Below, piece after piece: positions 1 through 17,222 of a stretch of 64,000 nt of DNA. Each line of letters begins with the position of its first letter. The stretch's first letter is position 1. The stretch comes from a phage. The notes under the pieces are model-generated. The model did no database searches and was not told the origin of the DNA. It saw only the letters and a list, made by a program, of their open reading frames with translations. Where the stretch lies: sequence record PQ478073.1; one strand, given 5' to 3'. The position numbers were made by a program, and so were the translations under genes.

Positions 1-36
1 ACGGATTCTACTATAGTATCGCTGTCCAATAAATCA

Positions 37-252
37 ATGGATACTTTCCAATTCATCTATACCAGTACTGATAACATTGAAGAAATTGAATTTCAAAACA
101 ATACATTAAGTCCATGTAGTAGTGTTATAACCTTTATGTCATATCTATGGTCAACTAAAACAAGTGCTGTTGTATATAGTTCAAATTATACACAAGATAG
201 TATTGTTGAATCATATAAAGTTCTAAAGGAATACTATGAAAATAACAAATGA
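37..252 (+). CDS. hypothetical protein; frame is open to position 1, so the gene may start upstream of the window
   Basis: ORF track; ATG at 37; frame open from window edge. Confidence 0.45.
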   Translation: MDTFQFIYTSTDNIEEIEFQNNTLSPCSSVITFMSYLWSTKTSAVVYSSNYTQDSIVESYKVLKEYYENNK

Positions 253-817
253 TTTTATTAAAAGTGTAGTACACCCTATGCTTAGTATTATGAAAAAAAT
301 ACAGAATCTACCGGAAGATAACGATTACAAGTTTAATCGTTTTGATTCAGATGTGTTTTGTATTGAAATTGAAATTAATAACAATCGCAATTTACATTTA
401 AAATTCAAAGAATCTTCGAGTCCGTACTACAACTTTGATATGAATTTTAAAATAGATACTGACATTGAAGAAAACATAATATCAAATCATACTAGCAAAA
501 ATGGTTTTATGCATAGAACTACTATGTACAATAATAAAAATAGTATTATATCTAAATGGAATCAACAATTCACTAAAATTTGTGAAATTGAATATAATGA
601 TTTTGGTGAAGAACATTACTTTCAGTTAAGTACAATTCATGAACTTCCACCATATGATTATGTTAAAACATGGTTTGATATTCATAATATAATTGATGAT
701 GCAATCAAACTTCCATTTGGTGTGTCAATATCATATACTGCTCCTAAAACATTTGTTTTTACTGAAGATATGATTATGAAAAAGATATGGGCAATTATCC
801 CACTTATGATGGATTAA
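236..817 (+). CDS. hypothetical protein, dispersed paralog family F (shared EEHxFQLSTxHxL motif)
   Basis: ORF track; AAAGGA RBS before ATG; motif EEHYFQLSTIHELPPYDY. Confidence 0.65.
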   Translation: MKITNDFIKSVVHPMLSIMKKIQNLPEDNDYKFNRFDSDVFCIEIEINNNRNLHLKFKESSSPYYNFDMNFKIDTDIEENIISNHTSKNGFMHRTTMYNNKNSIISKWNQQFTKICEIEYNDFGEEHYFQLSTIHELPPYDYVKTWFDIHNIIDDAIKLPFGVSISYTAPKTFVFTEDMIMKKIWAIIPLMMD

Positions 818-823
818 ATTCGT

Positions 824-848
824 ACCAGGGGTTGACTCTGGTATTTTT
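824..848 (+). terminator. putative rho-independent terminator
   Basis: short stem ACCAG/CTGGT followed by T-run. Confidence 0.35.
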
Positions 849-878
849 GTATGATACATTGTCCTAAAGGAGAATTTT

Positions 879-1430
879 ATGAACTACAATCATGATCTTT
901 TTACATTATGTGCATCCAAATGTGTTGATGGATGGACAGATAAAATCAATACCATAATTCATCGATATCTGGTCTTTAGTTCTCGTGCACGAAGTGAGGG
1001 GGCTATGGATTTCAAATATACACTATCTATTGATGGTGTAACTATCCATGCAGACGAAGAACGTCTGAGCATTAATTTGTATGATTCCTGTGTATTTGCT
1101 ATTCACCAAAAGATGGGGAAAGGATGGGGTTGTAATAACATTAACTCAAAAGCTATCTTTTGGGTTGGTCACCACCAGACAGTACTTGATCCTTCAATCA
1201 AATCTAATCTTTTATCCGATAATATGGTTTATGATTTATTGTACTCCGAAGAACAACATTTTCAGTTAAGTACATTACATGATCTGGCACAGTACGAGGA
1301 TTGTTACAAAACATTAGAACTATGCCATTCCCTTGAACTTAAAGATAAATTGATACAAGTTTACCCTTCATTCTTTCATGAAGAAGTACAAAGTACACTA
1401 GATCATATTTTATATGGATACGATAAATGA
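879..1430 (+). CDS. hypothetical protein, paralog family F
   Basis: ORF track; AAGGAG RBS; motif EEQHFQLSTLHDLAQYED. Confidence 0.7.
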   Translation: MNYNHDLFTLCASKCVDGWTDKINTIIHRYLVFSSRARSEGAMDFKYTLSIDGVTIHADEERLSINLYDSCVFAIHQKMGKGWGCNNINSKAIFWVGHHQTVLDPSIKSNLLSDNMVYDLLYSEEQHFQLSTLHDLAQYEDCYKTLELCHSLELKDKLIQVYPSFFHEEVQSTLDHILYGYDK

Positions 1431-2029
1431 GAAAAAGTTATCAAGAAGCTATTGACTTAATTCGTGAAGTTATCAAGGTGGCTCCTGCTGCTATTGAGTT
1501 CAAGAAGTCCATATACAAGAAGTATGGGTCAATGTCGAGTATGTGCTTTCAAAAGAAACGTAGAGCATTCACTACCCAGTACTGGAATGATTCTATCATC
1601 CTGAGCAATGAGACTCAGCGTATTTTAACACTAGAATCTGAACCTAATGAGTACGGGGAAGGGAACATTTGTGTACCTGATTATGATGAAATTAACTTCA
1701 ACTGCGGTGATTTTGAAACAACATTATTACTTCATGAGGGTTATCCAGAAGGTGATGTATTAGCTGAGTACAATCCAAAAACTAAAATTCTCAAAAGAGG
1801 AATCCAGTTCACTATTAATAACAAAGATGATGTTCAAGCAGCACTGATGCAACTGAGTACAAGTGAACCTATCACTATTAGTGTAGAAGAGTTATGGGGA
1901 ATTATTTCGGTACTCAATGAGTGCTACAAAGTAAAATCATTGCGTAAACACAGCATTATATTACATACCAATATGGCAAATATAAAATGTAAGCACATTC
2001 AAGAAATGGTGGTTCCAGATGGACTTTAA
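1427..2029 (+). CDS. hypothetical protein
   Basis: ORF track; ATGA start/stop overlap with upstream gene. Confidence 0.65.
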   Translation: MRKSYQEAIDLIREVIKVAPAAIEFKKSIYKKYGSMSSMCFQKKRRAFTTQYWNDSIILSNETQRILTLESEPNEYGEGNICVPDYDEINFNCGDFETTLLLHEGYPEGDVLAEYNPKTKILKRGIQFTINNKDDVQAALMQLSTSEPITISVEELWGIISVLNECYKVKSLRKHSIILHTNMANIKCKHIQEMVVPDGL

Positions 2030-2603
2030 AGAAATTGAAAGTAAATTAAAGTACTTCAAAGATATCAAACTTCTTTGGAAAAAGTATAAAGTTGATTACA
2101 ATTTCAGTGATGATGAGACAATAAAATACATTGAGATTAATATCAAAATCAAGTTCAAGAATAATAATTATGGTGAAGTAACCTTAAATCATACTGGTAT
2201 ATCACTCAAGGACTATGATGGTACAACACTCGCATATTTTGACTTCACACCAGAACCAGGTGAAACACTACTTAGTGAGATAAATTCCTATGACATGGAA
2301 GTGTTCGGCGGGAATCCGTTACTGTTCCGACTTTCTGAAGAGTGGAGTGAAGAGTACTACACTTACAAAGATGGTGTAGTACTTGACATTCATGGAGAAG
2401 TTGTGAATGACTTGGAAGAACGTTTGTTCCAAGAATTGTGTGTTTCAAATACTTCATATGCATACAATCATATCCTTGACATGTTTGATTTATATAGTAA
2501 AATAGATGCTGAAATGAAGGCACATGGTATTCATTACCTTACAATTAACGACTATGCTCAACTCGAAACCGCTGTGAAAGCATTGACTAAAGTACTGAAA
2601 TAG
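2019..2603 (+). CDS. hypothetical protein
   Basis: ORF track; + strand tiling. Confidence 0.6.
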   Translation: MDFKEIESKLKYFKDIKLLWKKYKVDYNFSDDETIKYIEINIKIKFKNNNYGEVTLNHTGISLKDYDGTTLAYFDFTPEPGETLLSEINSYDMEVFGGNPLLFRLSEEWSEEYYTYKDGVVLDIHGEVVNDLEERLFQELCVSNTSYAYNHILDMFDLYSKIDAEMKAHGIHYLTINDYAQLETAVKALTKVLK

Positions 2604-2612
2604 GAATGAAAT

Positions 2613-3026
2613 ATGAAACTGTATCATGCGAGTACTGTAAAAATTGATAACTTTTATATCCCGTATGGTGGTCTTCATATGGGAGGTAAACACAGTGCTT
2701 TGGAAGCTGCATTACGCAAGCTGAGAAGCCCACTGAACGTAGTAGACGCATGTACAGTATACTTGCATACCTTAGAAGTTGATGTTGATAACGTGCTTCT
2801 GTGTGAAGATTTAGGCAGTGATGATGAGTGGCGTTCACTTATTGAGAATTGCACTGCTCAAGGTTATGATGCTGTTCAGTACAAAAATGACTACGAGCCT
2901 GATAATGTTCCTAGTTATATGATTTGGGATGCATCTAAAGTTCGCATCATTGAAGTTGATGCTATGCATATGGATGAAGCTGAAATGATTATCGAAGATT
3001 TTCTTGATGAATATGAAGGTGTATAA
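2613..3026 (+). CDS. hypothetical protein
   Basis: ORF track; + strand tiling. Confidence 0.6.
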   Translation: MKLYHASTVKIDNFYIPYGGLHMGGKHSALEAALRKLRSPLNVVDACTVYLHTLEVDVDNVLLCEDLGSDDEWRSLIENCTAQGYDAVQYKNDYEPDNVPSYMIWDASKVRIIEVDAMHMDEAEMIIEDFLDEYEGV

Positions 3027-3562
3027 TGACTGACCCGATGGTAGCACTGGCACGTACTAAGTTACTATTAAAGATTGGTGAGATTTTTACGGTTCTTCTG
3101 TCCAATAATATTGATATTACTGAGCTAGATATTAAGCAACCGTGGGAAGTGACTATGTTCTCGGCGTTCCACCGATTGTCATATAAAGGTGAAAGTGTTC
3201 TTGATTTTAACCCTAAAGCAAAATTCATAGATTATGCTGCGTTGTACAGAGAGTTGCACCGAAATATTTATTCCGGTTGTATAACCAATAACTTCAAAGA
3301 AATTAAAGTTCAAACTGCATCACATGAGTTCAATGATTTACTTTATCCAGAATTTAATCTAACTGAAGAATTACTCTTTCAGTACTCGTTAATTCTCACA
3401 AATCTCGAAACGTTAGAGTACTACAAAGAGTTAGTAGATATTTTTATGAATACACGACTTTCAAAAGATATTGTGATATTCTGGTATACAGAGCATGTTA
3501 CGGAGGAATTGCTTACTGAATTTCTTCTAAATATGACAGCTATAAAGGAGAAGTTATGTTAG
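3026..3562 (+). CDS. hypothetical protein (possible distant family F member)
   Basis: ORF track; start overlaps upstream stop. Confidence 0.6.
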   Translation: MTDPMVALARTKLLLKIGEIFTVLLSNNIDITELDIKQPWEVTMFSAFHRLSYKGESVLDFNPKAKFIDYAALYRELHRNIYSGCITNNFKEIKVQTASHEFNDLLYPEFNLTEELLFQYSLILTNLETLEYYKELVDIFMNTRLSKDIVIFWYTEHVTEELLTEFLLNMTAIKEKLC

Positions 3563-4029
3563 ATATTTTAGGAAACATTGATACTGCAAATTATTTTATC
3601 CAGGACGCACTGTTCAATACAGTTCAACATGGATTAGAAGTTCGTCATAACGTTTACCAAGGTGATGGTTATTTCGTTGATATTGTTGAGGCACGAAAGA
3701 ATACGTTTAATGTTAACATTACAACACTGGGTAGACAGAACATTGCACGAATTTTAGTAAGTAAAGATGAAATTGTATTGAGATACAGTGCTAAGTTTAT
3801 GTTGACTTATAAGAAAAAAACTGATATGTTCAGTACTAATTTATTTGATGAGCCATTTGACCTTGAAGATATTGAAGCTACTTTCTTTACTCAAAGTACT
3901 ATGGTAAAATACACTGATGTTCAATTTTCTGCTGATGTAATGTCAGAAACATTACAAATGATCAAGGTATTATTTTATGCATTTGAGCAATTTAGAGAAG
4001 AAAGAAACAAGGTTAACAACCACAGATGA
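3556..4029 (+). CDS. hypothetical protein
   Basis: ORF track. Confidence 0.6.
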   Translation: MLDILGNIDTANYFIQDALFNTVQHGLEVRHNVYQGDGYFVDIVEARKNTFNVNITTLGRQNIARILVSKDEIVLRYSAKFMLTYKKKTDMFSTNLFDEPFDLEDIEATFFTQSTMVKYTDVQFSADVMSETLQMIKVLFYAFEQFREERNKVNNHR

Positions 4030-4390
4030 ACTAATAGAGGCGATCACTAAGGAGTCAAAATACCACAAAGGGATTCGTCTATATTTTATAGATATTGGTT
4101 CAATGGAAGGCATATACATTTATGGTTCACAATCTTTATCTTATGATGTAATGCCAAAAAAACATGTAAAAATCTTTTTAGGTTCAGATAAAAAAACTTT
4201 CTTGACAATTAATGATAAAAACGTTATTATGAATTCGTTGGGTCATGATAAGGTGGAAATTGATCTAAACACACTGGAGGATATTGATTTTTTTCAATAC
4301 GAGTGTTTAGGTGTTGACTTACATGGCATTAGTAGCGATATGATAAAATCATTAATCAAATATTTCGAAGGTGTTCATAAATGTATCTAA
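3977..4390 (+). CDS. hypothetical protein (start uncertain; 53-nt overlap with upstream ORF)
   Basis: ORF track. Confidence 0.45.
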   Translation: MHLSNLEKKETRLTTTDELIEAITKESKYHKGIRLYFIDIGSMEGIYIYGSQSLSYDVMPKKHVKIFLGSDKKTFLTINDKNVIMNSLGHDKVEIDLNTLEDIDFFQYECLGVDLHGISSDMIKSLIKYFEGVHKCI

Positions 4391-4878
4391 CTAAATCAAT
4401 GAAAAATTCATTTGATAAAATCAAGAGTTGTCTTGATGGGGAAAATATTACAAGTGTTACACAAACTGCTGACCAAATTCAAAGCAGTTCAAGTGATTGT
4501 ACTGTTATTTTAGGTTTACATAGTCTACGTTTATCAATAGTAAATAATATTGACAACACTGCTATTGTAATCACACCATGCCATATTCAAAATGAGAATG
4601 GTGTATATCTTCATCACATGGGAACAGTATTTCATATTTTCAATACAAACGAAAACATTGTTAAGGAATACAAATCTCTTAATATTGATTCAGGTGAATT
4701 ATTTCAAATGAGTACTTTGTACTCATGTAATTTTACAGATACTTCATGTATTTTGCCATTTTTCTTGGAAATTATTAAGAAAATGGAAAATTTAAAACGT
4801 GAATACAATAAAGAAATGGTTCCTGAAGCTATATTAAATATTACTAATGCTATAGAGAAGTATAATGCAGTGACTTAA
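4381..4878 (+). CDS. hypothetical protein, paralog family F-like (ELFQMSTLY motif)
   Basis: ORF track. Confidence 0.6.
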   Translation: MYLTKSMKNSFDKIKSCLDGENITSVTQTADQIQSSSSDCTVILGLHSLRLSIVNNIDNTAIVITPCHIQNENGVYLHHMGTVFHIFNTNENIVKEYKSLNIDSGELFQMSTLYSCNFTDTSCILPFFLEIIKKMENLKREYNKEMVPEAILNITNAIEKYNAVT

Positions 4879-4920
4879 TAAAAACGCACATGGAGTGCAT
4901 TAGAAGATCAAGGATAGATC

Positions 4921-5394
4921 ATGGAGATTAAAACTGTTGAAAATGGGAAAATTGATGACATTTTAGAGTTGGACGCATTCAAAGTTCATGATATAATGTT
5001 TAATGTGAAGGACATTATTCAATGTCTATTTTTGTGTAGCAAGACAATGCATGATTTTTTTCACAACCCAAATACTAACGTTTTTATACTAACAATCAGT
5101 ACTGAAAACTCGTTTATCATGGGTATGCCTATGAGTACAAATGAACAATATATTGATTGTGTTATTCGTAATAACGATAGTATTACGCCACAATCTGAAG
5201 TACGTAAAAAGAAAAACACCTACACAATCAAAGATGATAAAATTATGATGTGCTGTAGTAAAGGGTTTATATTAGATAATTTTATCGTCAAAGACAGTTA
5301 TCACGACTTTAAAGTGTCTGAAAATCAATCCAATGTAGTTCTTTATGCGAGTGACATAGAAAGTCTAACAGTTAAAGATCCCAGTTTGGAGTAA
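4921..5394 (+). CDS. hypothetical protein
   Basis: ORF track; GGA RBS. Confidence 0.6.
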   Translation: MEIKTVENGKIDDILELDAFKVHDIMFNVKDIIQCLFLCSKTMHDFFHNPNTNVFILTISTENSFIMGMPMSTNEQYIDCVIRNNDSITPQSEVRKKKNTYTIKDDKIMMCCSKGFILDNFIVKDSYHDFKVSENQSNVVLYASDIESLTVKDPSLE

Positions 5395-5396
5395 GT

Positions 5397-5528
5397 ATGG
5401 CTAAAAATGTAAACAACTTTGTACAAAAGCATATGAATGAGTTTAATAAACCTCAAACACATGTGGACCGTAAAAAAGCAATGAAGAATGGTAAAGTAAA
5501 ACACAAGTCGAGATTTATTCTCGACTAA
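5397..5528 (+). CDS. small basic protein (about 43 aa), below ORF-track size cutoff
   Basis: hand-read ORF MAKNVNNFVQKHMNEF...; GGAG 6 nt upstream; terminator follows. Confidence 0.4.
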   Translation: MAKNVNNFVQKHMNEFNKPQTHVDRKKAMKNGKVKHKSRFILD

Positions 5529-5536
5529 TTTTTTAT
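5507..5536 (+). terminator. rho-independent terminator
   Basis: stem GTCGAGA/TCTCGAC, loop TTTAT, then T-run. Confidence 0.6.
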
Positions 5537-5561
5537 CCGAAATTTAGGAGATTGTATTACT

Positions 5562-6410
5562 ATGGATACAACAGATTTTCTTAATTTTAAAAAGTATTCA
5601 GTACTTGAACATATCAACGAATTTCTGAATTCCCCAACACCATTTGGTATCAGTACATCAGATACATACGATGGATATAGAATCTTCCCATGCAATGACT
5701 TTCAAATTTCTGTCAAAAAAGGTACTTCAAAAGAAGTTGCAATTCGTGATGTAGTACTGTATAGCGATTCTTCTATTTATTACTGTCATGATGTGAACAA
5801 TTTTGAATCTCTTTCAACACCTAATTGTTCATACTACAAATCCAATGACACAATGATGTACAAAGAAGAACACATCAATGGGGTTTCGTTTTATAAAACC
5901 GCCAGCGATAAATCATATACATCTAGAGATGATTTTGGAAAATATACATGCACTATGTATACGGATGATGAAAAATCAAATCGTATTCATTCATTCGAAT
6001 CCAAATTCAAAGAGAGTGAAGTTTCAAATATCACTATACAAGAAAAGGTTACCGAAGATGGTGTTGTGTATCGTAGTACTGCATTCTTCCGAATGAAAGA
6101 TATTGCAACTGGTCGCCCAATGATGTATAATATTGACATATTCATGAAAGGTGAATCATCGGAAGTGGTGATTAGTACTGGTTATCGTGAAAAATATACA
6201 GTTACAATGGAATCACCAGATGCATCATTAGTTCATCTCTTTAACAATTTATATACATTCCAATTCGAACTTAGTTTCGTTCCAAATGAATATCAAATAT
6301 TTGATATATTAAAAAGTAATATTATTAATAAGTTAGAATATTACTACAAGTTAGGTGGTAAGATGTGCATAGTTAATACTATGTTACATAACATAAAAGA
6401 AACATTATAA
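5562..6410 (+). CDS. hypothetical protein
   Basis: ORF track; GGAG RBS. Confidence 0.7.
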   Translation: MDTTDFLNFKKYSVLEHINEFLNSPTPFGISTSDTYDGYRIFPCNDFQISVKKGTSKEVAIRDVVLYSDSSIYYCHDVNNFESLSTPNCSYYKSNDTMMYKEEHINGVSFYKTASDKSYTSRDDFGKYTCTMYTDDEKSNRIHSFESKFKESEVSNITIQEKVTEDGVVYRSTAFFRMKDIATGRPMMYNIDIFMKGESSEVVISTGYREKYTVTMESPDASLVHLFNNLYTFQFELSFVPNEYQIFDILKSNIINKLEYYYKLGGKMCIVNTMLHNIKETL

Positions 6411-6426
6411 ATCTGGAGGATTTGGT

Positions 6427-6720
6427 ATGGATACTAAATTCAAAATTATTTTTAAAACTAAGCCGTATATTCCACATACAGCAGAACGTTTTATACCACA
6501 TGGTGCTGAGGAAATTATTCACCAAGATGGTACTAAGTTATACCTTGTTCCTTGTTCTTATGAACGTGCAGTAGAAATGTTACTAATGAATGCTAGACTA
6601 TGCAAAAACAAGTACATTAGTTACCTATACAATGAACATATTTTAGATTTCAATGATGAAAATATGTTCATTCTAGCAATTGAGGATTTTGATAACTGGT
6701 ACAATATTATTAAAATCTAA
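6427..6720 (+). CDS. hypothetical protein
   Basis: ORF track; GGAGGA RBS. Confidence 0.6.
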   Translation: MDTKFKIIFKTKPYIPHTAERFIPHGAEEIIHQDGTKLYLVPCSYERAVEMLLMNARLCKNKYISYLYNEHILDFNDENMFILAIEDFDNWYNIIKI

Positions 6721-6728
6721 TGAAAATA

Positions 6729-6775
6729 ATGTGAACATATTAGATTCTTGTGATATAATGTTCACATCTTTTTTT
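6729..6775 (+). terminator. hairpin terminator whose loop carries a -10 element
   Basis: 10-bp inverted repeat ATGTGAACAT / ATGTTCACAT followed by T-run. Confidence 0.5.
6731..6759 (+). promoter_or_regulatory. sigma70-like promoter with extended -10 (TGaTATAAT)
   Basis: TGATATAAT about 35 nt upstream of gene start at 6792; weak -35. Confidence 0.45.
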
Positions 6776-6791
6776 GATAACGGAGATATAG

Positions 6792-7178
6792 ATGAATACA
6801 AGTTCAATCCTAAAAGCAATTGGTGGTGTTTTACTCATTGAAGTAAAAGGTGAACCAAAGCTATGCTGTTTAGAAGATATGAAGAATACAAAACACTTCA
6901 GTACTGGTCAGATTTTCAATGCCATTCGTATTCTAAATGACAAATCCATTGCTGATTATGGAAAAGTTTGGCCTGTATATCAAAATGCTGATGGTGATAT
7001 CAGTACTGATTGGAAAACAATTGAGGCGGTACGACAAAGTTGTGAGAGTGATTGGGACTTCATTGTTGAAGTTTGTGATCAACTACAAGAAGATGTTCCA
7101 GAAATTGTCGAACGAAAAGAAGTCCTAGCACGACTTGAAAAATTCCGTCACGGAACACTACAGTATGACACAATCTAA
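6792..7178 (+). CDS. hypothetical protein
   Basis: ORF track; GGAG RBS. Confidence 0.65.
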   Translation: MNTSSILKAIGGVLLIEVKGEPKLCCLEDMKNTKHFSTGQIFNAIRILNDKSIADYGKVWPVYQNADGDISTDWKTIEAVRQSCESDWDFIVEVCDQLQEDVPEIVERKEVLARLEKFRHGTLQYDTI

Positions 7179-7227
7179 TCTGCTTATTAAAAATATCTAA
7201 TTAACATTATATAAAAGGAATTTAAAA

Positions 7228-7533
7228 ATGGAAGACAATGGAATGAAATTTGATATGTTTGAAGGTGTACCAGAGTTCGATTTCAATAAACTTGAAAATG
7301 GTGAAGAATCAGAACTAGTAAGTGTTACACTAAAATCAGATACCAAAAAGAAATATTCCCCATCAGTTCGTTCACGTTCTCAAGAAGAATATGAAACCTT
7401 CATTGAGAGTATTCATTACGAAACGTTCCATCATGCAGATGGTACTCCGTATGAAGTTCGTGTTACAGTACTGAAGCCTGAAGTAAACCCAATGGAAAAT
7501 CTACGTCCTGTTTACTGCTGGGCAAGCCACTAA
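7228..7533 (+). CDS. hypothetical protein
   Basis: ORF track; AAGGAA RBS. Confidence 0.6.
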   Translation: MEDNGMKFDMFEGVPEFDFNKLENGEESELVSVTLKSDTKKKYSPSVRSRSQEEYETFIESIHYETFHHADGTPYEVRVTVLKPEVNPMENLRPVYCWASH

Positions 7534-7542
7534 TAAACCAAA

Positions 7543-7574
7543 GGACGGGATATAATATCTCGTCTTTTTTTTTG
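7543..7574 (+). terminator. rho-independent terminator
   Basis: stem GGACGGGATAT/ATATCTCGTCT then 9-T run. Confidence 0.6.
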
Positions 7575-7585
7575 TCTGGAGATAT

Positions 7586-8434: not shown

Positions 8435-8460
8435 GACATACCATAAGTTTATGATATAAT
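8432..8460 (+). promoter_or_regulatory. sigma70-like promoter TGAGAC-17-TATAAT with TGn extension
   Basis: same -35/-10 pair as at 22284; faces the ORF-free region. Confidence 0.45.
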
Positions 8461-8464
8461 GTAA

Positions 8465-8497
8465 GGTGACAGCAGAATATGTTGTCGCCTTTTTTTT
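8465..8497 (+). terminator. rho-independent terminator
   Basis: 9-bp stem with G-U pairs then 8-T run. Confidence 0.6.
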
Positions 8498-8498
8498 A

Positions 8499-9034: not shown

Positions 9035-9109
9035 ATGCGTAGCATGGTAATTCTACTGATGTTGATGGAATCAACGTCACGTATATTCATTGATGTTTCC
9101 ATAGGAATA

Positions 9110-9655: not shown

Positions 9656-9671
9656 CAAAAGGAATTATATA

Positions 9672-10193
9672 ATGTCGAAGAAGGATGCTTCGAAAAAACA
9701 TTCAGTACATTTCAGTACTGGAAAAGATAACTGGACAACTCCCAAAGATTTCTTTGAAGATTTGGATGAGTTATGGGGATTTACACTTGATGCTGCTTGT
9801 GTAGATGAGACTGCATTGTGTGATAATTTTTTCACTCCAGAAGATGATTCACTATCACAGGATTGGGGAAATAATATAGTTTGGTTGAATCCACCATACA
9901 GTGACTTGAAAACTTGGTTATCTAAAGCAGTAGATGCATATAATAACGGGGCAACTGTAGTTATTCTTGTACCCTCAAGAACCGACACAATTGCTTTTCA
10001 GGATTATGCTGCTAAAATATGTGATTGTATTTGTTTTATTAAGGGAAGATTACGATTTGGTATACCAGAAGAACCCGATAAGAAAACAGATTCAGCACCA
10101 TTTCCTTCGTGTCTGATAGTACTGGATAAGTACTTAACCACTGCTAAAATCAATTATCTTAAATCTCTTGGGTTGGTGATGAAGAATTTATGA
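9672..10193 (+). CDS. phage-type DNA N6-adenine methyltransferase
   Basis: WTTP ... LDAAC ... WLNPPYS motif pattern; AAGGAA RBS. Confidence 0.8.
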   Translation: MSKKDASKKHSVHFSTGKDNWTTPKDFFEDLDELWGFTLDAACVDETALCDNFFTPEDDSLSQDWGNNIVWLNPPYSDLKTWLSKAVDAYNNGATVVILVPSRTDTIAFQDYAAKICDCICFIKGRLRFGIPEEPDKKTDSAPFPSCLIVLDKYLTTAKINYLKSLGLVMKNL

Positions 10194-10723
10194 AAGAAAC
10201 ATGTGTATTAACGTTTGGTCGTATTAATCCTGTACATCGTGGACATGGTTTAGTTTTTGAAAAGGCCAAAACATTACAAGAACAGTACAATGCTGATTTA
10301 AAAATATATCTAAGCACCAGTACTGACAATATAAAAAACCCACTCCCACCTGAACTAAAAATGTATTATACAGAGGGATTCTATCCTTCAGTGCAAGAGA
10401 ACATCTACACAGAAGACAATCTATTTGATATAATGAGAGAACTGGATGGAAAGTACTTAGATGTTCTTTTCATTTGTGGTTCTGACCGTATTGATTCTTT
10501 TCAAAAAACTCTTGACATGTACAATGGTAAGTTGTATAATTTTTGTAGTATAAAAGCAATTCAGGCAGGTATTGACCGTAATGTAAGTCAATATAGCTCA
10601 ACACAAATGCGTAACTTCGCAAAAAATGAAGATTTTGATAGTTTTCGTGAGTTTTTACCTGGAAATGACGAGGACTTAAAAATACAATTATTTGAAGACG
10701 TTATAAAATACATGAGGAAATAA
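10190..10723 (+). CDS. NadM-type nucleotidyltransferase (NMN adenylyltransferase-like)
   Basis: FGRINPVHRGH (HxGH) and ISST..R motifs; ATGA coupling to methyltransferase gene. Confidence 0.6.
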   Translation: MKETCVLTFGRINPVHRGHGLVFEKAKTLQEQYNADLKIYLSTSTDNIKNPLPPELKMYYTEGFYPSVQENIYTEDNLFDIMRELDGKYLDVLFICGSDRIDSFQKTLDMYNGKLYNFCSIKAIQAGIDRNVSQYSSTQMRNFAKNEDFDSFREFLPGNDEDLKIQLFEDVIKYMRK

Positions 10724-10725
10724 TT

Positions 10726-11019
10726 ATGTCAGTACTGTTCAAAACCAATCCAGTACTTTGGGATCAAAATGAGCAATCAGGATTTCGTTCCATCCATGTT
10801 GAATACAAAGGTAATACTGTAGTTGCAATTATTGCTAACAAAACTCTAGGAAACTGGACTGCACAGGTTGTTCCTATGGGATATTCTTACACATCTGATG
10901 AGGTACAATTCTTGGCTGAACTATATCGCCAAGTGCCGTTTATCATTAATGTACTAGAAGGTAATGATACATTATCACATGCAGATGTGATTAATTTTCT
11001 TGGAAACTTGCATGTGTGA
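10726..11019 (+). CDS. hypothetical protein
   Basis: ORF track. Confidence 0.6.
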   Translation: MSVLFKTNPVLWDQNEQSGFRSIHVEYKGNTVVAIIANKTLGNWTAQVVPMGYSYTSDEVQFLAELYRQVPFIINVLEGNDTLSHADVINFLGNLHV

Positions 11020-11299
11020 TGAAATAAATCTTACAGGATATTTTTTACAAGAATCAATGATTAAATTTAGTGAAAAATTTTCAGTACTGGATGGTATCGA
11101 AATGTGGCATGTCAAACCACTGTTCCACACTTTCAGTAAAGAGCACAAAATGTTATTGACTGAAGCGAGTAAATCAAATAACATATGTGAAATCAAAATT
11201 GGTGTAAATGTCTATAAAGGGATGGTTATCTTTTTTGACAATAACAGCAACTACTTTTATATTGTTAAGGAGCATTACGTTGACAAATACAAATACTAA
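11012..11299 (+). CDS. hypothetical protein (start uncertain)
   Basis: ORF track opens with TTG at 11000; first ATG at 11012. Confidence 0.4.
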   Translation: MCDEINLTGYFLQESMIKFSEKFSVLDGIEMWHVKPLFHTFSKEHKMLLTEASKSNNICEIKIGVNVYKGMVIFFDNNSNYFYIVKEHYVDKYKY

Positions 11300-11894
11300 T
11301 ACATACTTCCGTTATCTTCGCTTAGGTCTTTCCCTACGTCCGATCCGTGGAAAGTGCGATTCACTCGCTGACCTTGACTATGCATATGCATTACATCATG
11401 AAGGTGTACAGTATGTATTGGGTGATTATGGTGAATTTGAAGAAACAAATGACAGTACTGGAATTAATGCTGGTGTAGAAAATCTTAACAACATTGCTAA
11501 CAGTTCTCGCCATGACATTGTGTTACAGATTCAAAACTTTATTGAGCAGCACACAGGTAAACGTGTTTGGTGCTATGTCGGTACTGATGCACAAATGTCA
11601 ATTTCATTCGGTAACGATGAAGGATATGTTGCACAGCTTATTATGGATTTTGAATCTGAAGAGAAGTTTTTAGAATTCAAAGAAAAGATTATTCAGTCAC
11701 TTGTTGATATGGGTATCCCCGAAGATAAAATGCCAGAAGTTCAAAACATTGATGAATTTGTTTTGATTCCATCTGATGAGAAATATGATGCAATGTTTAC
11801 TGCCCTTAATATTCCAGGAGTTATTGTGGAGTACTTTGATGATGGTGATGATAGTATCTATATCGATCTAGATGACGATGACGACGATGAATAA
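11208..11894 (+). CDS. hypothetical protein with poly-Asp C-terminal tail (start uncertain)
   Basis: ORF track; C-terminus DLDDDDDDE; 5' part overlaps upstream ORF. Confidence 0.5.
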   Translation: MSIKGWLSFLTITATTFILLRSITLTNTNTNTYFRYLRLGLSLRPIRGKCDSLADLDYAYALHHEGVQYVLGDYGEFEETNDSTGINAGVENLNNIANSSRHDIVLQIQNFIEQHTGKRVWCYVGTDAQMSISFGNDEGYVAQLIMDFESEEKFLEFKEKIIQSLVDMGIPEDKMPEVQNIDEFVLIPSDEKYDAMFTALNIPGVIVEYFDDGDDSIYIDLDDDDDDE

Positions 11895-11900
11895 TGTACA

Positions 11901-11929
11901 TAGCCCGACATAAGTTCGGGCTATTTTTG
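11901..11929 (+). terminator. rho-independent terminator
   Basis: stem AGCCCGA/TCGGGCT then T-run. Confidence 0.65.
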
Positions 11930-11940
11930 TAAGGGGATAT

Positions 11941-12216
11941 ATGAATTATAAAGTTCTACAATATACATACAGTGTTTTGTTTGATTTACATCACAATGGA
12001 AGATATCTCAATACAATACGAGAAAACACATTCACTCATACTATCTGGATTAATCACTTAATAATGATACGTGAATATTTTGTTAATAGTGAGATAATCA
12101 TTCGTGGTAAAAAACAGAAGATAGAACAAGTTAATAGTTTTGGTGGTAAATTAGTACTATCATTTATAGATAGTAATACTAATGAAAGATATAGTATAGA
12201 TTTGGTGGACATATGA
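11941..12216 (+). CDS. hypothetical small protein, tandem paralog array A (member 1)
   Basis: ORF track; N-terminus MNYKVLQYTYSVLFDL. Confidence 0.6.
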   Translation: MNYKVLQYTYSVLFDLHHNGRYLNTIRENTFTHTIWINHLIMIREYFVNSEIIIRGKKQKIEQVNSFGGKLVLSFIDSNTNERYSIDLVDI

Positions 12217-12479
12217 ATTATAAAGATTTCCTACTAACATACAAGATTATTCGAGATTTAGCACACGACAATGATAGCCCTAGTCTAGAAGACACATGCA
12301 CTGAAATGATTCATACAATTCGTGGTAAGATTAAAAAAAAATTCAGTACTGTTATTATTGGTGATGACCATGCAGAATTTTCTGATATAATCATTAGACG
12401 TGATGGTAAAGTTGAGGTTCAGTACTACACTGATTTTGGATTTACCAGTATTCCGTTGGAGATATTCCCTTGGGATTAA
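12213..12479 (+). CDS. hypothetical small protein, array A (member 2)
   Basis: ORF track; MNYKDFLLTYKIIRDL; ATGA coupling. Confidence 0.6.
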   Translation: MNYKDFLLTYKIIRDLAHDNDSPSLEDTCTEMIHTIRGKIKKKFSTVIIGDDHAEFSDIIIRRDGKVEVQYYTDFGFTSIPLEIFPWD

Positions 12480-12781
12480 ATTTAAATGATATACAATTCA
12501 CTTATAAGATCCTATATGATTTGTATGATGTATACCTTGTTAGTAACAAAATAGGTTCACATAACCCATACAAAGAACAACCATTTATTGATTTATATAT
12601 TGAGTACTTAGATTCAGTAGGTGAATATATAAAAAAGAATTACAGTACTTTTATCGATGGAAATGATATATTCGAGTTCTCTGGAGTTAAATCATACAAT
12701 GGGATTATCCATGTTGAATTTCTTGAAATAACTGATAGGGGATTTATCGAGATTAAAGTTGTGAAGTTGGTGAATTTATAA
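12470..12781 (+). CDS. hypothetical small protein, array A (member 3), apparent TTG start
   Basis: ORF has no in-frame ATG; N-terminus LNDIQFTYKILYDLY parallels member 4. Confidence 0.5.
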   Translation: MGLNLNDIQFTYKILYDLYDVYLVSNKIGSHNPYKEQPFIDLYIEYLDSVGEYIKKNYSTFIDGNDIFEFSGVKSYNGIIHVEFLEITDRGFIEIKVVKLVNL

Positions 12782-12791
12782 GAGGTTACAT

Positions 12792-13103
12792 ATGTTATTA
12801 AATGATATACAATTCACATACAAATTTTTGTATATCCAATACGCTACGGTTGATGCTGGTGAATATCTCTACGATGAAATCTATCGTTCGCTATGGATAA
12901 AGTTTTTGGATGAATTACATGAATATTACCATGATTTGTGTATAGTTCGTGATAATAAAATATACAAATTCCGCGATATTGTTAGTCATAGCGGTAAGCT
13001 ACGATTGGAATTAAGTACTGATAGTGATGTTGATTGGATTGGTGTAAATTTACTGGAGTTGGAGAATGAAAAACAACTTAAAGGAAATACAAGTATTTTA
13101 TAA
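12792..13103 (+). CDS. hypothetical small protein, array A (member 4)
   Basis: ORF track; MLLNDIQFTYKFLYIQY. Confidence 0.6.
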   Translation: MLLNDIQFTYKFLYIQYATVDAGEYLYDEIYRSLWIKFLDELHEYYHDLCIVRDNKIYKFRDIVSHSGKLRLELSTDSDVDWIGVNLLELENEKQLKGNTSIL

Positions 13104-13350
13104 ATTCTTATACTTATCATATGTAAAAGATGAGTACTATGAAAGTGTGTATTATTTTTTATGGCAACATTACCGTACTATAGTAAGAGATTTATATATA
13201 GGAAAATCTATCATATCCAATGGTGAAAAATGTACCTGTACGGATGTAGTTAGTTTTAATGGTTCTTTAACACTGTGTTTCAGATGCGATAATAATAGTG
13301 GGTCATTTTCATTAAACGTATATCAGTTAGAAGGAATAAATTTTGAATAA
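13066..13350 (+). CDS. hypothetical small protein, array A (member 5)
   Basis: ORF track; GGAG RBS; MKNNLKEIQVFYKFLYLSY. Confidence 0.6.
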   Translation: MKNNLKEIQVFYKFLYLSYVKDEYYESVYYFLWQHYRTIVRDLYIGKSIISNGEKCTCTDVVSFNGSLTLCFRCDNNSGSFSLNVYQLEGINFE

Positions 13351-13543
13351 ATGTCCATATTGTAACAGTACTCAATTAGCTCGTTTCCGTTTAGATTCAG
13401 ACTGGGCGACTGGTGCTGGTGATTTCTTCCCTATTAATGATGATGCGGAATACACCGAAGAACAGCACAAAGATTTTGATAAATCATGGCGACCTGACAT
13501 TGAGTGCATTTATTGCCTTAATTGTGAGCGTGTTCATGACTAA
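13343..13543 (+). CDS. small zinc-ribbon protein (CPYC ... CLNC)
   Basis: ORF track; two Cys pairs. Confidence 0.55.
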   Translation: MNKCPYCNSTQLARFRLDSDWATGAGDFFPINDDAEYTEEQHKDFDKSWRPDIECIYCLNCERVHD

Positions 13544-13799
13544 AGCTGAACTAATAGTTCATACATATAAAATGATATCAAGTACTGAGTTATCATATAG
13601 TGCAGATAATCCAGTACTGGATTATTTTGTTGAATTATTGAAAGAGCATTATATTGGTAAATCACTGAATATTAATAATATTAATTTCACTATAACGGAT
13701 GTGGGACCAGGAAAAAACGTACTAATTGTATGTATTACTTCAACTGGTAACCCATTATACCCAATATCAGTAATTTTTGAGGTATTAGGTGATTTATGA
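13536..13799 (+). CDS. hypothetical protein (start moved from 13413 to internal ATG)
   Basis: track ORF overlaps upstream gene; ATG at 13536 overlaps upstream stop. Confidence 0.45.
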   Translation: MTKAELIVHTYKMISSTELSYSADNPVLDYFVELLKEHYIGKSLNINNINFTITDVGPGKNVLIVCITSTGNPLYPISVIFEVLGDL

Positions 13800-14086
13800 A
13801 TATCATATTAATACAAAAAACATATACTCTACTGATGAAAGAATATACTAATACTTATGATGAAAAGTGCAGTGCAAATCATAATATGTATGAATTCATT
13901 ACTCAAGAGTACAGGGATTATATATATGCTGTGTTAGTGGGTAGATATTTCAGTACTAGAAAATACACAAAACTTCAAATAGTTGATGTTTCTTTTTATT
14001 TCAATGGTCATATTACTATTCATAGTTTAGACCAAGATTCAACAACGTACTTAAACTTTTCATTTGATGAGGTAACATTTTTATGA
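13796..14086 (+). CDS. hypothetical small protein, array A-like
   Basis: ORF track; MNIILIQKTYTLLMKEY. Confidence 0.6.
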   Translation: MNIILIQKTYTLLMKEYTNTYDEKCSANHNMYEFITQEYRDYIYAVLVGRYFSTRKYTKLQIVDVSFYFNGHITIHSLDQDSTTYLNFSFDEVTFL

Positions 14087-14259
14087 GAACAGTATTTTTT
14101 ATCTGGAGTCTTTTTTCATTGGCAGTACTGACAGTATGTGGGATTTGTTTCCTTTCATCAATTAATACTTGGTATATCAATTTACTATTTCCATTTGTCG
14201 GTGTTGGTTTAGGGTTTACTTTGCATAGTGTATGTAAGGATTACAATGAGAACAAATGA
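14083..14259 (+). CDS. small hydrophobic membrane protein (about 58 aa), below ORF-track cutoff
   Basis: hand-read ORF MRTVFFIWSLFSLAVLTVCGICFLSS...; ATGA coupling. Confidence 0.4.
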   Translation: MRTVFFIWSLFSLAVLTVCGICFLSSINTWYINLLFPFVGVGLGFTLHSVCKDYNENK

Positions 14260-14524
14260 AGTACTTATTGCTGAAACAATGAAGATGATTTACAATATCA
14301 CGTCAGCACAGAATATGCCCTATCCAACTAAGTCTTTATTGAGGACTGTGTATCTGGGGATAGTACAGGAGTACTACAAATCCAAGCACCGAAGCATTAT
14401 TAGTGTTTATCGTGATTATGAAAGGATTCGTATTTTATTCTGGAACAAGAATCGAGTACGTTCTGAATGTGACCTAGTGGACTTTAAATTAGAGAATCTT
14501 TATTGCTATAAACAGGGACAATAG
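14246..14524 (+). CDS. hypothetical protein
   Basis: ORF track frame; AAGGA RBS before ATG at 14246. Confidence 0.55.
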   Translation: MRTNEVLIAETMKMIYNITSAQNMPYPTKSLLRTVYLGIVQEYYKSKHRSIISVYRDYERIRILFWNKNRVRSECDLVDFKLENLYCYKQGQ

Positions 14525-14542
14525 TTTAATTCATGATATAAT
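14514..14542 (+). promoter_or_regulatory. sigma70-like promoter GGGACA-16/17-TGaTATAAT
   Basis: extended -10 about 40 nt upstream of start at 14583. Confidence 0.45.
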
Positions 14543-14582
14543 AATGGGTAAGGAACAATAATTAACACAAGGAGTGTGTGAA

Positions 14583-15311
14583 ATGCTTGACCGTATCCGT
14601 TTCGCTACAGAGATGGCGAATGAATTAAACATGGCAAATTTCCAAATGTTAACATCAGTAATGGCTGAACATGCATGTGCTTATTCTGTAAGTGGTGTGC
14701 AGTGTGGTCAGGAGAATATGTTAGCAGATGTTTATAGTGAAGTGCAAAGTAAGCAATATAGTGTAAAGACATATAAGGATAAGTTTGTTAGTCTTTATAT
14801 GAACGAAGATATTGCCGAAGACCGTAAATTCACTGATTTTATTATTGAACGCCGAGTATCAGGTGTATCTAATCCTAATGCATCAAGCGAGGAAGTTTTT
14901 GCAGAAGTACTGAAAGATATATACGAAAATGAATTAAAAAGTAAGAATCATTACAATGTACGTGAAACGAACACAGTGCTCTTGGGATATGATGAAGACG
15001 AAGAATACTATTATTTTCGTATGACTGAAGTTCCTTTTGAATACAAATCTCCATATACAACTACAGTGAAAGAATTTACTGAAAAAAGTAAAAACTTCAT
15101 GAAGCATGAAGGAAATCGTTGTAGTATAAATGGTTATGACGAAAATGGCATTCACATTTATGAATGGGTTCACCCAAATTGTCAGACATACACTCGTTGC
15201 TTGAAAAAACGTTATAATTTAGAAGAGCATGAATCATTCTATTTTAAAGTTAAGAAGCAAGGTTATACTCGCCCCGCCGATTCTGAATTGATGGGTATGA
15301 TATATTTCTAA
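14583..15311 (+). CDS. hypothetical protein
   Basis: ORF track (GTG at 14574); AAGGAG RBS before ATG at 14583. Confidence 0.65.
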   Translation: MLDRIRFATEMANELNMANFQMLTSVMAEHACAYSVSGVQCGQENMLADVYSEVQSKQYSVKTYKDKFVSLYMNEDIAEDRKFTDFIIERRVSGVSNPNASSEEVFAEVLKDIYENELKSKNHYNVRETNTVLLGYDEDEEYYYFRMTEVPFEYKSPYTTTVKEFTEKSKNFMKHEGNRCSINGYDENGIHIYEWVHPNCQTYTRCLKKRYNLEEHESFYFKVKKQGYTRPADSELMGMIYF

Positions 15312-15321
15312 GGAAACTTCT

Positions 15322-15603
15322 ATGGATTTTTATCTACACACATGGACATACGAACAATATATTACATTATATCTTGAAATTATTAACACAGAACCTAGGT
15401 GTGGTTGTAGGTTCGCAGATATCATAAAAGAGTATGCTGACGAGTTCGAGTTTGTGTATCTTGGGTCTGATATATTTGTAAAAAGTGTAGGTAAAACCGG
15501 ACGAATCACTGATATAGATTACGACACTGTTAGTGTGAATTTCTATGTTGATTTTCCTGATGCTGGCGTTGATGGTGTATATTGTCTTTATGAAATAATT
15601 TAA
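15322..15603 (+). CDS. hypothetical protein
   Basis: ORF track. Confidence 0.55.
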   Translation: MDFYLHTWTYEQYITLYLEIINTEPRCGCRFADIIKEYADEFEFVYLGSDIFVKSVGKTGRITDIDYDTVSVNFYVDFPDAGVDGVYCLYEII

Positions 15604-15610
15604 ATTCTTA

Positions 15611-15635
15611 GGCCAGCGTTTGCTGGTCTTTTTTC
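15611..15635 (+). terminator. rho-independent terminator
   Basis: stem GCCAGC/GCTGGT then T-run. Confidence 0.6.
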
Positions 15636-15647
15636 GCAGGTACAAAG

Positions 15648-15950
15648 ATGTTCAGTATAGATTTAATTAACAGTACTATCAAAATGTTGGCTGATTTGGT
15701 GAGACAATCCAATGGAACTTTATATCCATCAATGTATAAAATGTTTGACCGATACATCAAGGATTGTAACATATCATTATATGGACTTGCTGTTGATATA
15801 GACGATTACTATGGAATTAATACTTCATATAAAACAGGAATTTTAATTGGTATTAATATAAAGATGGGGTATTTACCTTATTACTGTATAGGATTACCAG
15901 ATAATACTTTTGTAGAATATCCAGCCAGTACTATTAAATTAAGAGGATAA
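15648..15950 (+). CDS. hypothetical protein
   Basis: ORF track. Confidence 0.55.
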   Translation: MFSIDLINSTIKMLADLVRQSNGTLYPSMYKMFDRYIKDCNISLYGLAVDIDDYYGINTSYKTGILIGINIKMGYLPYYCIGLPDNTFVEYPASTIKLRG

Positions 15951-15957
15951 AACTAAA

Positions 15958-16536
15958 ATGAATGTATTAGAATTAAGTACTAAGCTGATTAGTATGCGTA
16001 ATGAGTGGTACGATTGGTTTTATAATGGTACTGATATGGATTTTTCAAAATATCCATTTATGGAATCAGGATGTGATGCAAGATACCGCTGGTTGAGCAA
16101 AGATTGTTCTGGTTTACATATTCTAGTTGACGATAGTGGTCAGGGAATTATAAAAGATTTACTTCAAGTTGAACAACTCGTCCATGATAATTGGTGTGAT
16201 AACGATCCATACCTTGGAAATATGATTTATGTAAGTGAAGATGATTGCATATTCGTTATCCAGCGTCATGGTAATTCTATGTTTTATGTAGCAGATAGCA
16301 GTACTCCAGAAGGTGCAGCAGCCGATGGACTTATGCCTAAGATTGATATATTGGAATTTGGATTACCTGAGCACTTCCAGATTAGTACTTTATACGATAT
16401 TCCACCACTTGAGTTCTTTGAAGAATTTAAATTGTACTACAATGATCTTCAAAAATTGAGTACTGATCGACGCATTGAAATAACTGTTAAGTACATGGAC
16501 GGAACGAAATTAACTGATACGGGGATAGAATTTTGA
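15958..16536 (+). CDS. hypothetical protein, paralog family F (PEHFQISTLYDIPPLEFF)
   Basis: ORF track; shared motif. Confidence 0.65.
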   Translation: MNVLELSTKLISMRNEWYDWFYNGTDMDFSKYPFMESGCDARYRWLSKDCSGLHILVDDSGQGIIKDLLQVEQLVHDNWCDNDPYLGNMIYVSEDDCIFVIQRHGNSMFYVADSSTPEGAAADGLMPKIDILEFGLPEHFQISTLYDIPPLEFFEEFKLYYNDLQKLSTDRRIEITVKYMDGTKLTDTGIEF

Positions 16537-17222
16537 TTAAAGATTTAGATAGAATTTTATATGTACTAAGGGGTGTAATTACATTACATCCACAAATCAA
16601 TCGAATTGAAAGTACATTTCAGTTGGAGTCAAGAGAAACTCCATATTCACATATATCAAATGTAGTTGGTTCACTCAGTACTGAAGACTCGTCTTACGAT
16701 ATTTGTGTATGTGAAGTACAACCAAGTTCGGATCTTGGATTTGCTATTTTTGATAAAGATCAAAATCTCATTAGTATGTTTCAGTGCAATAATCCTTTTT
16801 GGAAAACATGCCTGTATCCAGAGTGGGCTATGCTTGATCCAACCAAGAGTACCATTAAAGTTTATGACTCTAAAAATGATGAAGTCGTTATTGATTTGGA
16901 TGAGTCAATGTCAGAGGAAGAACACTTTCAGCTAATGATGATGCGTGCTATGCCGGAATACAATGCAATGATTAACACTGTGCAATACATTAAGGATACC
17001 ATGCCAGCGTTGCGTACACATGAGTTTTGTCATCCGGTATTGTATGAACATCTAGATTTAGACTTCAGTACTATTAAATTTAAAGATAGTGTTAAAAAAT
17101 ATATTCAAGAGAATGTTAAATTTGATTTTATTAGTACTATGAACAATAATCCAAAAACTAATTTTAGGCATCAGTACAATGAATCTTTGTCTAATGGACG
17201 TGATACCAGTTGGTGGAAATAA
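16533..17222 (+). CDS. hypothetical protein, paralog family F-like (EEHFQLMMMRAMPEY)
   Basis: ORF track; ATGA coupling. Confidence 0.65.
   Translation: MIKDLDRILYVLRGVITLHPQINRIESTFQLESRETPYSHISNVVGSLSTEDSSYDICVCEVQPSSDLGFAIFDKDQNLISMFQCNNPFWKTCLYPEWAMLDPTKSTIKVYDSKNDEVVIDLDESMSEEEHFQLMMMRAMPEYNAMINTVQYIKDTMPALRTHEFCHPVLYEHLDLDFSTIKFKDSVKKYIQENVKFDFISTMNNNPKTNFRHQYNESLSNGRDTSWWK

Follow-up and report, generated by a model that had tools for sequence, protein, structure and literature searches.

We analyzed a 64,000-nucleotide stretch of phage DNA (sequence record PQ478073.1, here called the window) and found that a set of hypothetical proteins encoded in it belongs to one homologous, lineage-specific protein family, the FQ family, of the RaK2-like jumbo phages (Asteriusvirus, Alcyoneusvirus, Mimasvirus, and phage SE_PL). 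Tandem duplication has expanded this family, which in the stretches examined numbers 8, ~24, ~33, or at least 45 copies, depending on the genome. Our favored reading, to which we assign a probability of about 0.5, is that this is one family of nonstructural accessory proteins acting on the host, in host takeover or in counterdefense. The window is Escherichia coli jumbo phage DNA of the genus Asteriusvirus: its first 17.5 kb is 98.1% identical to Escherichia phage vB_Eco_slurp01 (LT603033.1, positions 126898 to 144395) and 96 to 98% identical to 121Q, PBECO4, phAPEC6, and other Asteriusvirus jumbo phages (~350 kb). Nearly every open reading frame of the window lies on the + strand, and the G+C content is 0.30 to 0.36.

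A first-pass annotation had proposed that at least five proteins (236, 879, 4381, 15958, and 16533, each named here by the first position of its gene) share an internal segment and form a dispersed multigene family of unknown function in the early region of the genome. All five open reading frames are present on the + strand where they had been placed and coincide with annotated slurp01 coding sequences for hypothetical proteins, and all five carry the shared segment. For comparison, we used the syntenic array regions of slurp01 upstream of the window (L004), of EC.P1 (L003), and of the divergent Asteriusvirus A4 (L001), as well as phages of further genera, namely, Klebsiella phage RaK2, Cronobacter phage GAP32, and Salmonella phage SE_PL. 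A hidden Markov model (HMM) built exclusively from RaK2 proteins picked by regular expression, and thus from another genus, was scored on the 109 window proteins. Seven of them, including all five named above, came first, with E values of 2e-6 to 1.4e-3 (the next match was at 0.008), in agreement with the proposed multigene family. Family profiles built without the tested protein and its close relatives (leave-orthologs-out HMMs) returned E values of 7e-7 to 1e-4. When an HMM was seeded with the five proteins and iterated, it settled on 112 sequences from four loci, among which there was no annotated enzyme gene of the region (e.g., Dam or RNA ligase).

Most of the 112 sequences lie upstream of the window in one unbroken tandem array, so that “dispersed” does not describe the family: it is mainly an array extending past the left edge of the window. 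The count of at least five, while correct for those five, was an undercount, since the window holds ~8 to 11 members and slurp01 holds 45 (core-domain HMM, E < 1e-3, positions 102.9 to 183.7 kb), which take up 22 kb, or 6.3% of its genome. The Asteriusvirus profile detected ~30 proteins in RaK2 (where we put the total at ~33), ~24 in SE_PL, and 8 in GAP32, all of them in a syntenic block upstream of dam, the cytidylyltransferase gene, and rnlA (RNA ligase). In Cassandra, a PA5oct-like phage, no members were found in the cytidylyltransferase neighborhood, which is a nonsyntenic locus. Relatives infecting Yersinia, Erwinia, and Serratia probably also carry the family. The placement in an early region is plausible from position and orientation.

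BLASTP with single linkage did not join the window members to one another. Searches of 5.8 billion protein sequences returned three clusters for a single protein and 9 and 14 proteins for family profiles; matches are few because the family scores ~20 to 40 bits, which is insignificant against a database of that size. A search of 1.84 billion representatives gave 12 matches, and the sequences examined among them were members or close relatives of the query, none from outside this phage group.

The motif at the center of the shared segment was characterized over 114 family sequences, where its consensus is [ST]-E-E-x-[YL]-F-Q-x-S-[TL]-[VIL]-[YHFW]. F and Q occur in 114 of 114 sequences; the acidic positions carry E in 81 and 74, the S is kept in 92, T or L is found in 107, and an aromatic residue or His is found in 82. 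The residue following Q is Y in 32 sequences, L in 23, E in 16, Q in 10, and N and M in 8 each, and G is rare. The motif is located at 0.66 ± 0.08 of protein length (n = 114), and the family signature falls at ~0.6 to 0.75 along proteins of 105 to 230 residues. In alignments of 73 and 108 sequences, the internal F and Q were the sole invariant or near-invariant columns past the start Met. Within the window, the signature is present in 236, 879, 3026, 4381, and 15958, occurs as a variant in 16533, 2019, 3977, and 56355, and is decayed in 1427; among the five proteins first proposed, the two weaker versions are those of 4381, which lacks EE, and 16533, which lacks S-T.

The AT-rich composition of the genome and the marginal pairwise BLASTP matches could suggest that the motif is a chance or compositional artifact or else a DNA element (promoter or recombination site) lying in coding sequence, an explanation that we regard as refuted. 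FQ.S[TL] was seen five times in the window proteome of 19,787 residues, compared to 0.28 expected and a maximum of four in 2,000 shuffles, and [ED][ED]..FQ.[ST] was seen three times, compared to 0.05 expected by shuffling; the shared segment thus exceeds chance. Every motif position is encoded by a free mix of synonymous codons: F is encoded by TTT in 77 copies and by TTC in 37, Q is encoded by CAG in 75 and by CAA in 39, and Ser is encoded by AGT, TCA, AGC, or TCT. This variation, which includes both Ser codon families, shows that selection on the motif acts on the protein and not on the DNA. Moreover, the HMM from another genus recovered the same proteins.

Pairwise and profile alignments, which the first-pass annotation had suggested as a check, gave a mixed outcome. 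BLASTP among the five proteins was marginal (E values of 0.004 to 0.05), with alignments often covering only ~19 to 90 residues, whereas profile-profile comparison with hhalign revealed wider homology in four of the five (236, 879, 15958, and 16533). The strict 236 orthogroup aligned with 879 at 77% over 91 columns, with 15958 at 93% over 59 columns, and with 16533 at 74% over 69 columns, while its controls gave 0.1 to 0.4%. These four proteins also have an extended motif, FQ-x-S-T-h-h-x-h-P-x-x-E. Proteins 236, 3026, and 4381 tie to the core or short-form subfamilies at 66 to 90% over 34 to 71 columns. The background was low: eight unrelated control orthogroups reached at most 2%, and family-versus-control pairs reached at most 3.3%. 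Values of 98% obtained with an enlarged 236 group were discarded as nonindependent; they were inflated because that group shared P0022 and P0025 with its targets. An HMM seeded with 236 alone picked up, at E < 1e-6, the orthogroup of 16533 as well as divergent orthologs of 879 and of 15958; P0025, a divergent ortholog of 15958, carries a canonical motif (TEEEYFQLSVLY).

We also compared scores for the motif between its real flanks with scores for the same motif placed between shuffled flanks. With real flanks, 15958 scored 23.0 bits (shuffled, 5.6 ± 3.4) and 16533 scored 20.1 bits (shuffled, 5.0 ± 3.0), a gain of ~15 to 17 bits or ~5 standard deviations; for 236, 3026, and 56355, the gain was ~2 standard deviations. 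Taken together, these alignments suggest a wider homology that is weak but present, and for 4381 the similarity appears to consist mostly of the motif.

Structure prediction, another suggested check, was partly informative, in that two AlphaFold2 (AF2) models showed the same element order and both were of low confidence. The input alignments were shallow (window sequences plus sequences returned by the searches), and the predicted local distance difference test score (pLDDT) was 49.5 for 236 and 52.3 for the paralog P0010, the latter with a predicted template modeling score of 0.54. Both models contain an N-terminal helix, a beta-meander, a short motif helix, a long helix, a strand, and a C-terminal helix, so that the motif would tentatively be a helix within a domain. 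In a Foldseek search of BFVD, the top match of the 236 model was its own ortholog, and the next matches were uncharacterized proteins of 178 to 201 residues from Yersinia phage fHe-Yen9-03, Erwinia phage pEa_SNUABM_47, and GAP32. The cross-genus matches were full length (195 to 207 columns, template modeling scores of 0.43 to 0.50, probability of 1.0) at 12 to 16% identity. The P0010 model matched proteins of SP27, RaK2, and Serratia phage BF. These matches, made with low-confidence query models, support a shared fold and a wider distribution. A Foldseek search of PDB gave a best E value of 1.6 and carries no weight because the pLDDT values of the models are only 49.5 and 52.3.

Table 1. FQ family members and candidates in the window, with their E values in the RaK2-only and leave-orthologs-out HMM searches and their hhalign results
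Coordinates	Strand	Length (aa)	Assignment	Motif	Shared segment	RaK2-only HMM E	Leave-out HMM E	hhalign
1-252	+		3' end of member, cut by window edge; full gene in slurp01 L004 30641-31150	NIEEIEFQNNTLS				
236-817	+	193	Family member	GEEHYFQLSTIH (residues 124-135)	GEEHYFQLSTIHELPPYDY	4.7e-5	5.6e-9 and 2.5e-6 (two runs)	90% over 40 columns (core subfamily); 87% over 71 columns (short-form subfamily)
879-1430	+	183	Family member	SEEQHFQLSTLH	SEEQHFQLSTLHDLAQYED	2.4e-6	3.5e-7	
1427-2029	+	200	Possible degenerate member	Worn to ALMQLSTSEP			0.004	Only 11-15%
2019-2603	+	194	Probable member	LEERLFQELCVS				18-31%
3026-3562	+	178	Member, absent from the first-pass list	TEELLFQYSLIL		2.5e-5		78% (core subfamily); 83% (short-form subfamily)
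3977-4390	+	137	Probable member	EDIDFFQYECLG				48% over 42 columns (short-form subfamily)
4381-4878	+	165	Family member, weakest of the five first proposed	DSGELFQMSTLY	SGELFQMSTLYS	2.2e-5	1e-4	66% over 43 columns (short-form subfamily); only 4% over 13 columns (236 orthogroup)
15958-16536	+	192	Family member	GLPEHFQISTLY	LPEHFQISTLYDIPPLEF	2.6e-6	7.4e-7	
16533-17222	+	229	Family member	SEEEHFQLMMMR	SEEEHFQLMMMRAMPEY		5.9e-6	
56355-56756	+	133	Probable isolated short-form member, 39 kb off the array	NEETFFQEDTII		1.4e-3	8.8e-6	23% and 12% (gene without orthologs to align)

Judged from sequence, six proteins of the window are clear members (236, 879, 3026, 4381, 15958, and 16533), three are probable members (2019, 3977, and the isolated short-form 56355), and 1427 is possibly a decayed one (Table 1). 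Orthologs in other phages bear on the variant cases. The A4 ortholog of 1427 retains ALFQMG in the same alignment column, and that of 2019, which reached an E value of 3.5e-4 with a core HMM trained without it, carries the canonical IEEMAFQSSTV. For 3977, FQYEC is kept in the A4 and EC.P1 orthologs, the former of which the iterative HMM also picked up. At the left edge of the window, the listed open reading frame 37-252 corresponds to the C-terminal portion of a ~170-residue protein in the orthogroup alignment; the fragment scored an E value of 0.01 with the core HMM, and its RaK2 ortholog reads EELEFQYSTII. Proteins 15958 and 16533 form a conserved pair, in that order, directly upstream of the RNA ligase gene, and 16533 has an ortholog in SE_PL. 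Three further genes, 2613-3026, 3556-4029, and 4921-5394, were rejected as members (hhalign of at most 2%) though they lie inside the block. Neither of two 282-residue proteins, 5562-6410 and 7586-8434, is scored by the family HMM (E > 100), although the latter contains a motif-like PDELMFQLML; both diverge at the pace of family members, being 39% and 33% identical to A4, respectively.

The reading that these proteins act on the host draws on how they evolve and where they are found. Members are soluble and acidic: the median isoelectric point is 4.9, 81% fall below 5.5, and a transmembrane-like segment occurs in just 6 of 142. The ratio of nonsynonymous to synonymous substitution rates (dN/dS), relative to EC.P1 orthologs, was 0.21 for members and 0.18 for neighbors (P = 0.34), a value indicating that the members are genuine genes constrained by purifying selection. 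When the window lineage is compared with A4, orthologs have a median identity of 36% in the family and 70% among other genes; 236, 879, 1427, 2019, and 3977 are 29 to 36% identical to their A4 counterparts, and the adjoining 4921-5394 is 85% identical. Only 29 of 47 members have a reciprocal best match within the genus, and the N-terminal two-thirds of the protein is the part most variable in length and sequence. The exception to this fast turnover is the pair 15958/16533, which is 86 to 87% identical to A4. Individual members turn over rapidly beside strongly conserved neighbors, which would fit an arsenal directed at the host. According to this model, the proteins would be made inside the infected cell and act on host components. 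The conserved helix, containing a buried Phe and the invariant Gln, would form the structural core or else a contact surface that all members have in common, and the N-terminal sheet, being variable, would direct each paralog to a different target.

The main rival explanation is that the family serves the phage's own machinery, as adaptors, chaperones, or regulatory subunits in replication, transcription, or assembly of the large virion. The purifying selection, which is like that on neighboring genes, would suit such a role, as would the conservation of the pair 15958/16533 and the retention of the family in every RaK2-like lineage examined. However, a copy number ranging from 8 to at least 45 among related phages is unusual for core machinery, and many members have no recognizable ortholog within the genus; the products were also not found in the virion proteome. 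We therefore take a machinery role to be a serious candidate and clearly the less probable of the two.

A further alternative, that the members are packaged in the virion and injected with the DNA, takes its appeal from the analogy to the internal proteins of T4, likewise a diversified set that shares one short conserved segment. Here, however, the motif is internal, at ~66% of the length, and the N termini are not conserved. In phAPEC6, the family corresponds to gp378c-379c and genes within gp404c-466c, and mass spectrometry of the phAPEC6 virion identified 62 proteins, none of them from gp348-gp548 (PMC7247149, Table 1); none of the corresponding products was thus detected in the virion in this one published data set. 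In addition, the GAP32 members are labeled plainly as hypothetical in a record where other genes are marked as virion structural. Packaging is therefore largely refuted and has very little probability left.

Several results weigh against reading the set as one family of host-directed proteins. On the side of homology, masking the 11 to 12 motif residues with X removed all family-HMM signal from every member, so that for distant members the evidence of sequence homology is thin outside ~40 to 90 residues; with 879 and 4381, the motif between shuffled flanks scores as high on the family HMM as the real protein does; and F-Q is invariant in part because of how members were recruited, which favors sequences having the pair. 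Since both AF2 models are of low confidence, neither the fold description nor the Foldseek matches are firm. The best E value was 0.46 for the family profile against PDB sequences and 0.051 against NCBIfam. Pfam, proposed as a check at the outset, yielded nothing usable: ten window proteins had no match better than an E value of 0.034, and among 108 members scanned singly no Pfam family was matched by more than one. The five proteins first proposed fall into five different PHROGs (34636, 29816, 38478, 37163, and 32531), all labeled “unknown function,” and each matches its own PHROG end to end (E values of 1e-115 to 1e-166), so the individual orthogroups are already cataloged; the superfamily relationship among them is unrecorded in PHROGs. 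On the side of function, the dN/dS of members matches that of neighbors and thus gives no signature of pervasive positive selection. A scan for sigma-70 promoters found 93 sites, compared to 106 expected, which is no enrichment and is uninformative, and we found no transcriptome for these phages in the literature.

The masking and shuffled-flank results would also be expected if the motif were a short signal for recognition or processing (a protease site, for instance, or a docking peptide for one shared partner) carried by otherwise loosely related or unrelated proteins, in which case conservation would concern the signal and no fold. The isolation of the motif, which the first-pass annotation had named as the outcome that would speak against a family, is thus seen when the motif is masked and is not seen with hhalign for 236, 879, 15958, and 16533; the profile-profile and Foldseek matches reach well past the motif. 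The constant relative position, the similar sizes, and the tandem layout are as expected of duplicated genes, and both AF2 models put the motif in a helix within a domain and not in an exposed linker or terminus. The signal most readily suggested is the site of the NIa protease of tobacco etch virus (TEV) and other potyviruses, E-x-x-Y-x-Q|(G/S), with ENLYFQ|(G/S) as the TEV form; E-E-x-Y-F-Q-x-S resembles it at P6 (acidic), at P3 (aromatic in about one-third of members), at P2 (F), and at P1 (invariant Q), and the exact sequence EEGYFQGS occurs in a few members. The P1' residue, in contrast, is rarely G and never S (it is mostly Y, L, E, Q, N, or M), and the S comes one residue later. A TEV/3C-type substrate has a small residue after the Gln in an exposed, extended segment, and here neither was found, the segment being helical in both models. 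We identified no Gln-specific protease and know of no TEV-like protease in these phages. The resemblance is most likely a coincidence. The tail of the motif, Q-x-S-[TL]-[VIL]-aromatic (or, more narrowly, Q-x-S-L-[VI]-[FYW]), similarly recalls bacterial sliding-clamp-binding peptides of the QL[SD]LF type, a likeness of pattern that we treat as a lead only. Such peptides are pentapeptides or hexapeptides that lie in a flexible terminus or loop and bind a hydrophobic cleft of the clamp, whereas the motif is internal and predicted to be helical. Overall, a short signal on unrelated proteins appears improbable.

A related and more speculative idea keeps the single family of host-directed proteins and assigns the motif helix the role of a common handle for a single phage or host factor. 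The family could then be a modular effector system in which ~8 to at least 45 N-terminal “heads” share one docking or processing step. We consider the handle and the modular system, taken jointly, to be unlikely. If true, they would represent a type undescribed in phages, a broad arsenal for counterdefense or host manipulation that takes up ~6% of the genome.

In RaK2-like jumbo phages, more than 80% of genes have no assigned function (PMC7247149). One superfamily comprises at least 45 such genes, ~6% of a 348-kb genome, and it has been kept across genera infecting Escherichia, Klebsiella, Salmonella, and Cronobacter. Databases spread it over dozens of singleton groups, and its unification provides a single question and an annotation signature. 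It also corrects names that are likely to be spurious: A4_348 of phage A4 (L001 204-740, 178 residues, motif SPEEYFQESLVQ) is called “DNA ligase” in GenBank, which looks spurious for a family member. The name “amidohydrolase 3” for phAPEC6 gp447c (L007 32809-33186), whose size and place in the gene order match those of the short-form member at slurp01 L004 16323-16661, looks spurious as well. The members are, moreover, defined candidates for host-takeover and antidefense screens in phages considered for therapy. Should their function stay unknown, the result is an improvement of annotation and not a discovery.

The surroundings of the array hold other expanded families. Five paralogs of ~90 to 100 residues at 11941-13350 form a separate tandem family (pairwise BLASTP E values of 6e-8 to 3.6e-5), which may extend to ~14524 and 15322-15603 and has orthologous arrays in A4 and EC.P1. 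Upstream of the window, at L004 287-6894 (slurp01 96.3 to 102.9 kb), ~33 tandem proteins of ~70 residues make up one BLAST cluster, with few copies in A4, EC.P1, and RaK2. Both families share region, strand, and tandem mode with the FQ family, but neither has detectable similarity to it (0.3% by hhalign for the 12470-13103 controls in the case of the former). Farther into the window, two paralogs of ~900 residues (48643-51339 and 51865-54684) are 27% identical over 947 residues (E value of 5e-62), and three tandem paralogs of ~170 to 190 residues at 54752-56352 (E value of 5.5e-13 for the first two) lie directly upstream of 56355, which is followed by a gene at 56753-57985 matching the Pfam family RlaP (RNA-repair-pathway nucleotidyltransferase; E value of 3e-16).

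Within the fast-evolving array, 2613-3026 (137 residues) stands out as 91% identical to A4 and 60% identical to RaK2, with counterparts in GAP32 and SE_PL and conserved blocks LYHASTVKIDNFYIPYGGLHMGG and YKNDYEPDNVPSY. It had no Pfam or PDB sequence match, and the way in which H, Y, and E residues are conserved might point to an enzyme. The cytidylyltransferase gene at 10190-10723 had tblastn matches in 560 phage records, mostly T4-like cyanophages of Synechococcus and Prochlorococcus, at 30 to 39% identity. Terminator-like hairpins on the + strand are enriched in positions 1 to 18000 (18, compared to 5.5 ± 2.7 expected), with examples at 822-844, 7540-7568, 8463-8491, 11900-11924, and 15610-15629; one lies inside the 61-bp gap separating 236-817 from 879-1430.

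No description of the family was found in the literature on 121Q, PBECO4, RaK2, GAP32, CBB, Sharanji, and fEgEco12. The FQ family is new but belongs to a familiar class, that of accessory-gene families expanded in giant viruses, and is notable mainly for its size. Among phages, the nearest parallels are the hyperplastic regions of T4-like phages, in which small, co-oriented, fast-turnover blocks of accessory genes lie between conserved core genes, and the T4 internal proteins, which are diversified and united only by a short N-terminal capsid-targeting sequence that is cleaved by the prohead protease. The FQ family resembles these loci in forming accessory-gene blocks and in comprising diversified proteins with one short conserved segment. 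It differs from the internal proteins in being a single family of at least 45 copies, in having a segment that is internal and predicted to be helical, and in being undetected in the virion proteome. Among viruses of eukaryotes, the MGF360/505 families of African swine fever virus (ASFV) and the ankyrin/F-box families of poxviruses have generally been associated with host range and evasion of immunity. Like the FQ family, they are lineage-specific tandem expansions that vary in copy number and take up several percent of the genome, whereas the host of the FQ family is bacterial and we found no relationship of sequence or fold between it and the ASFV and poxvirus families.

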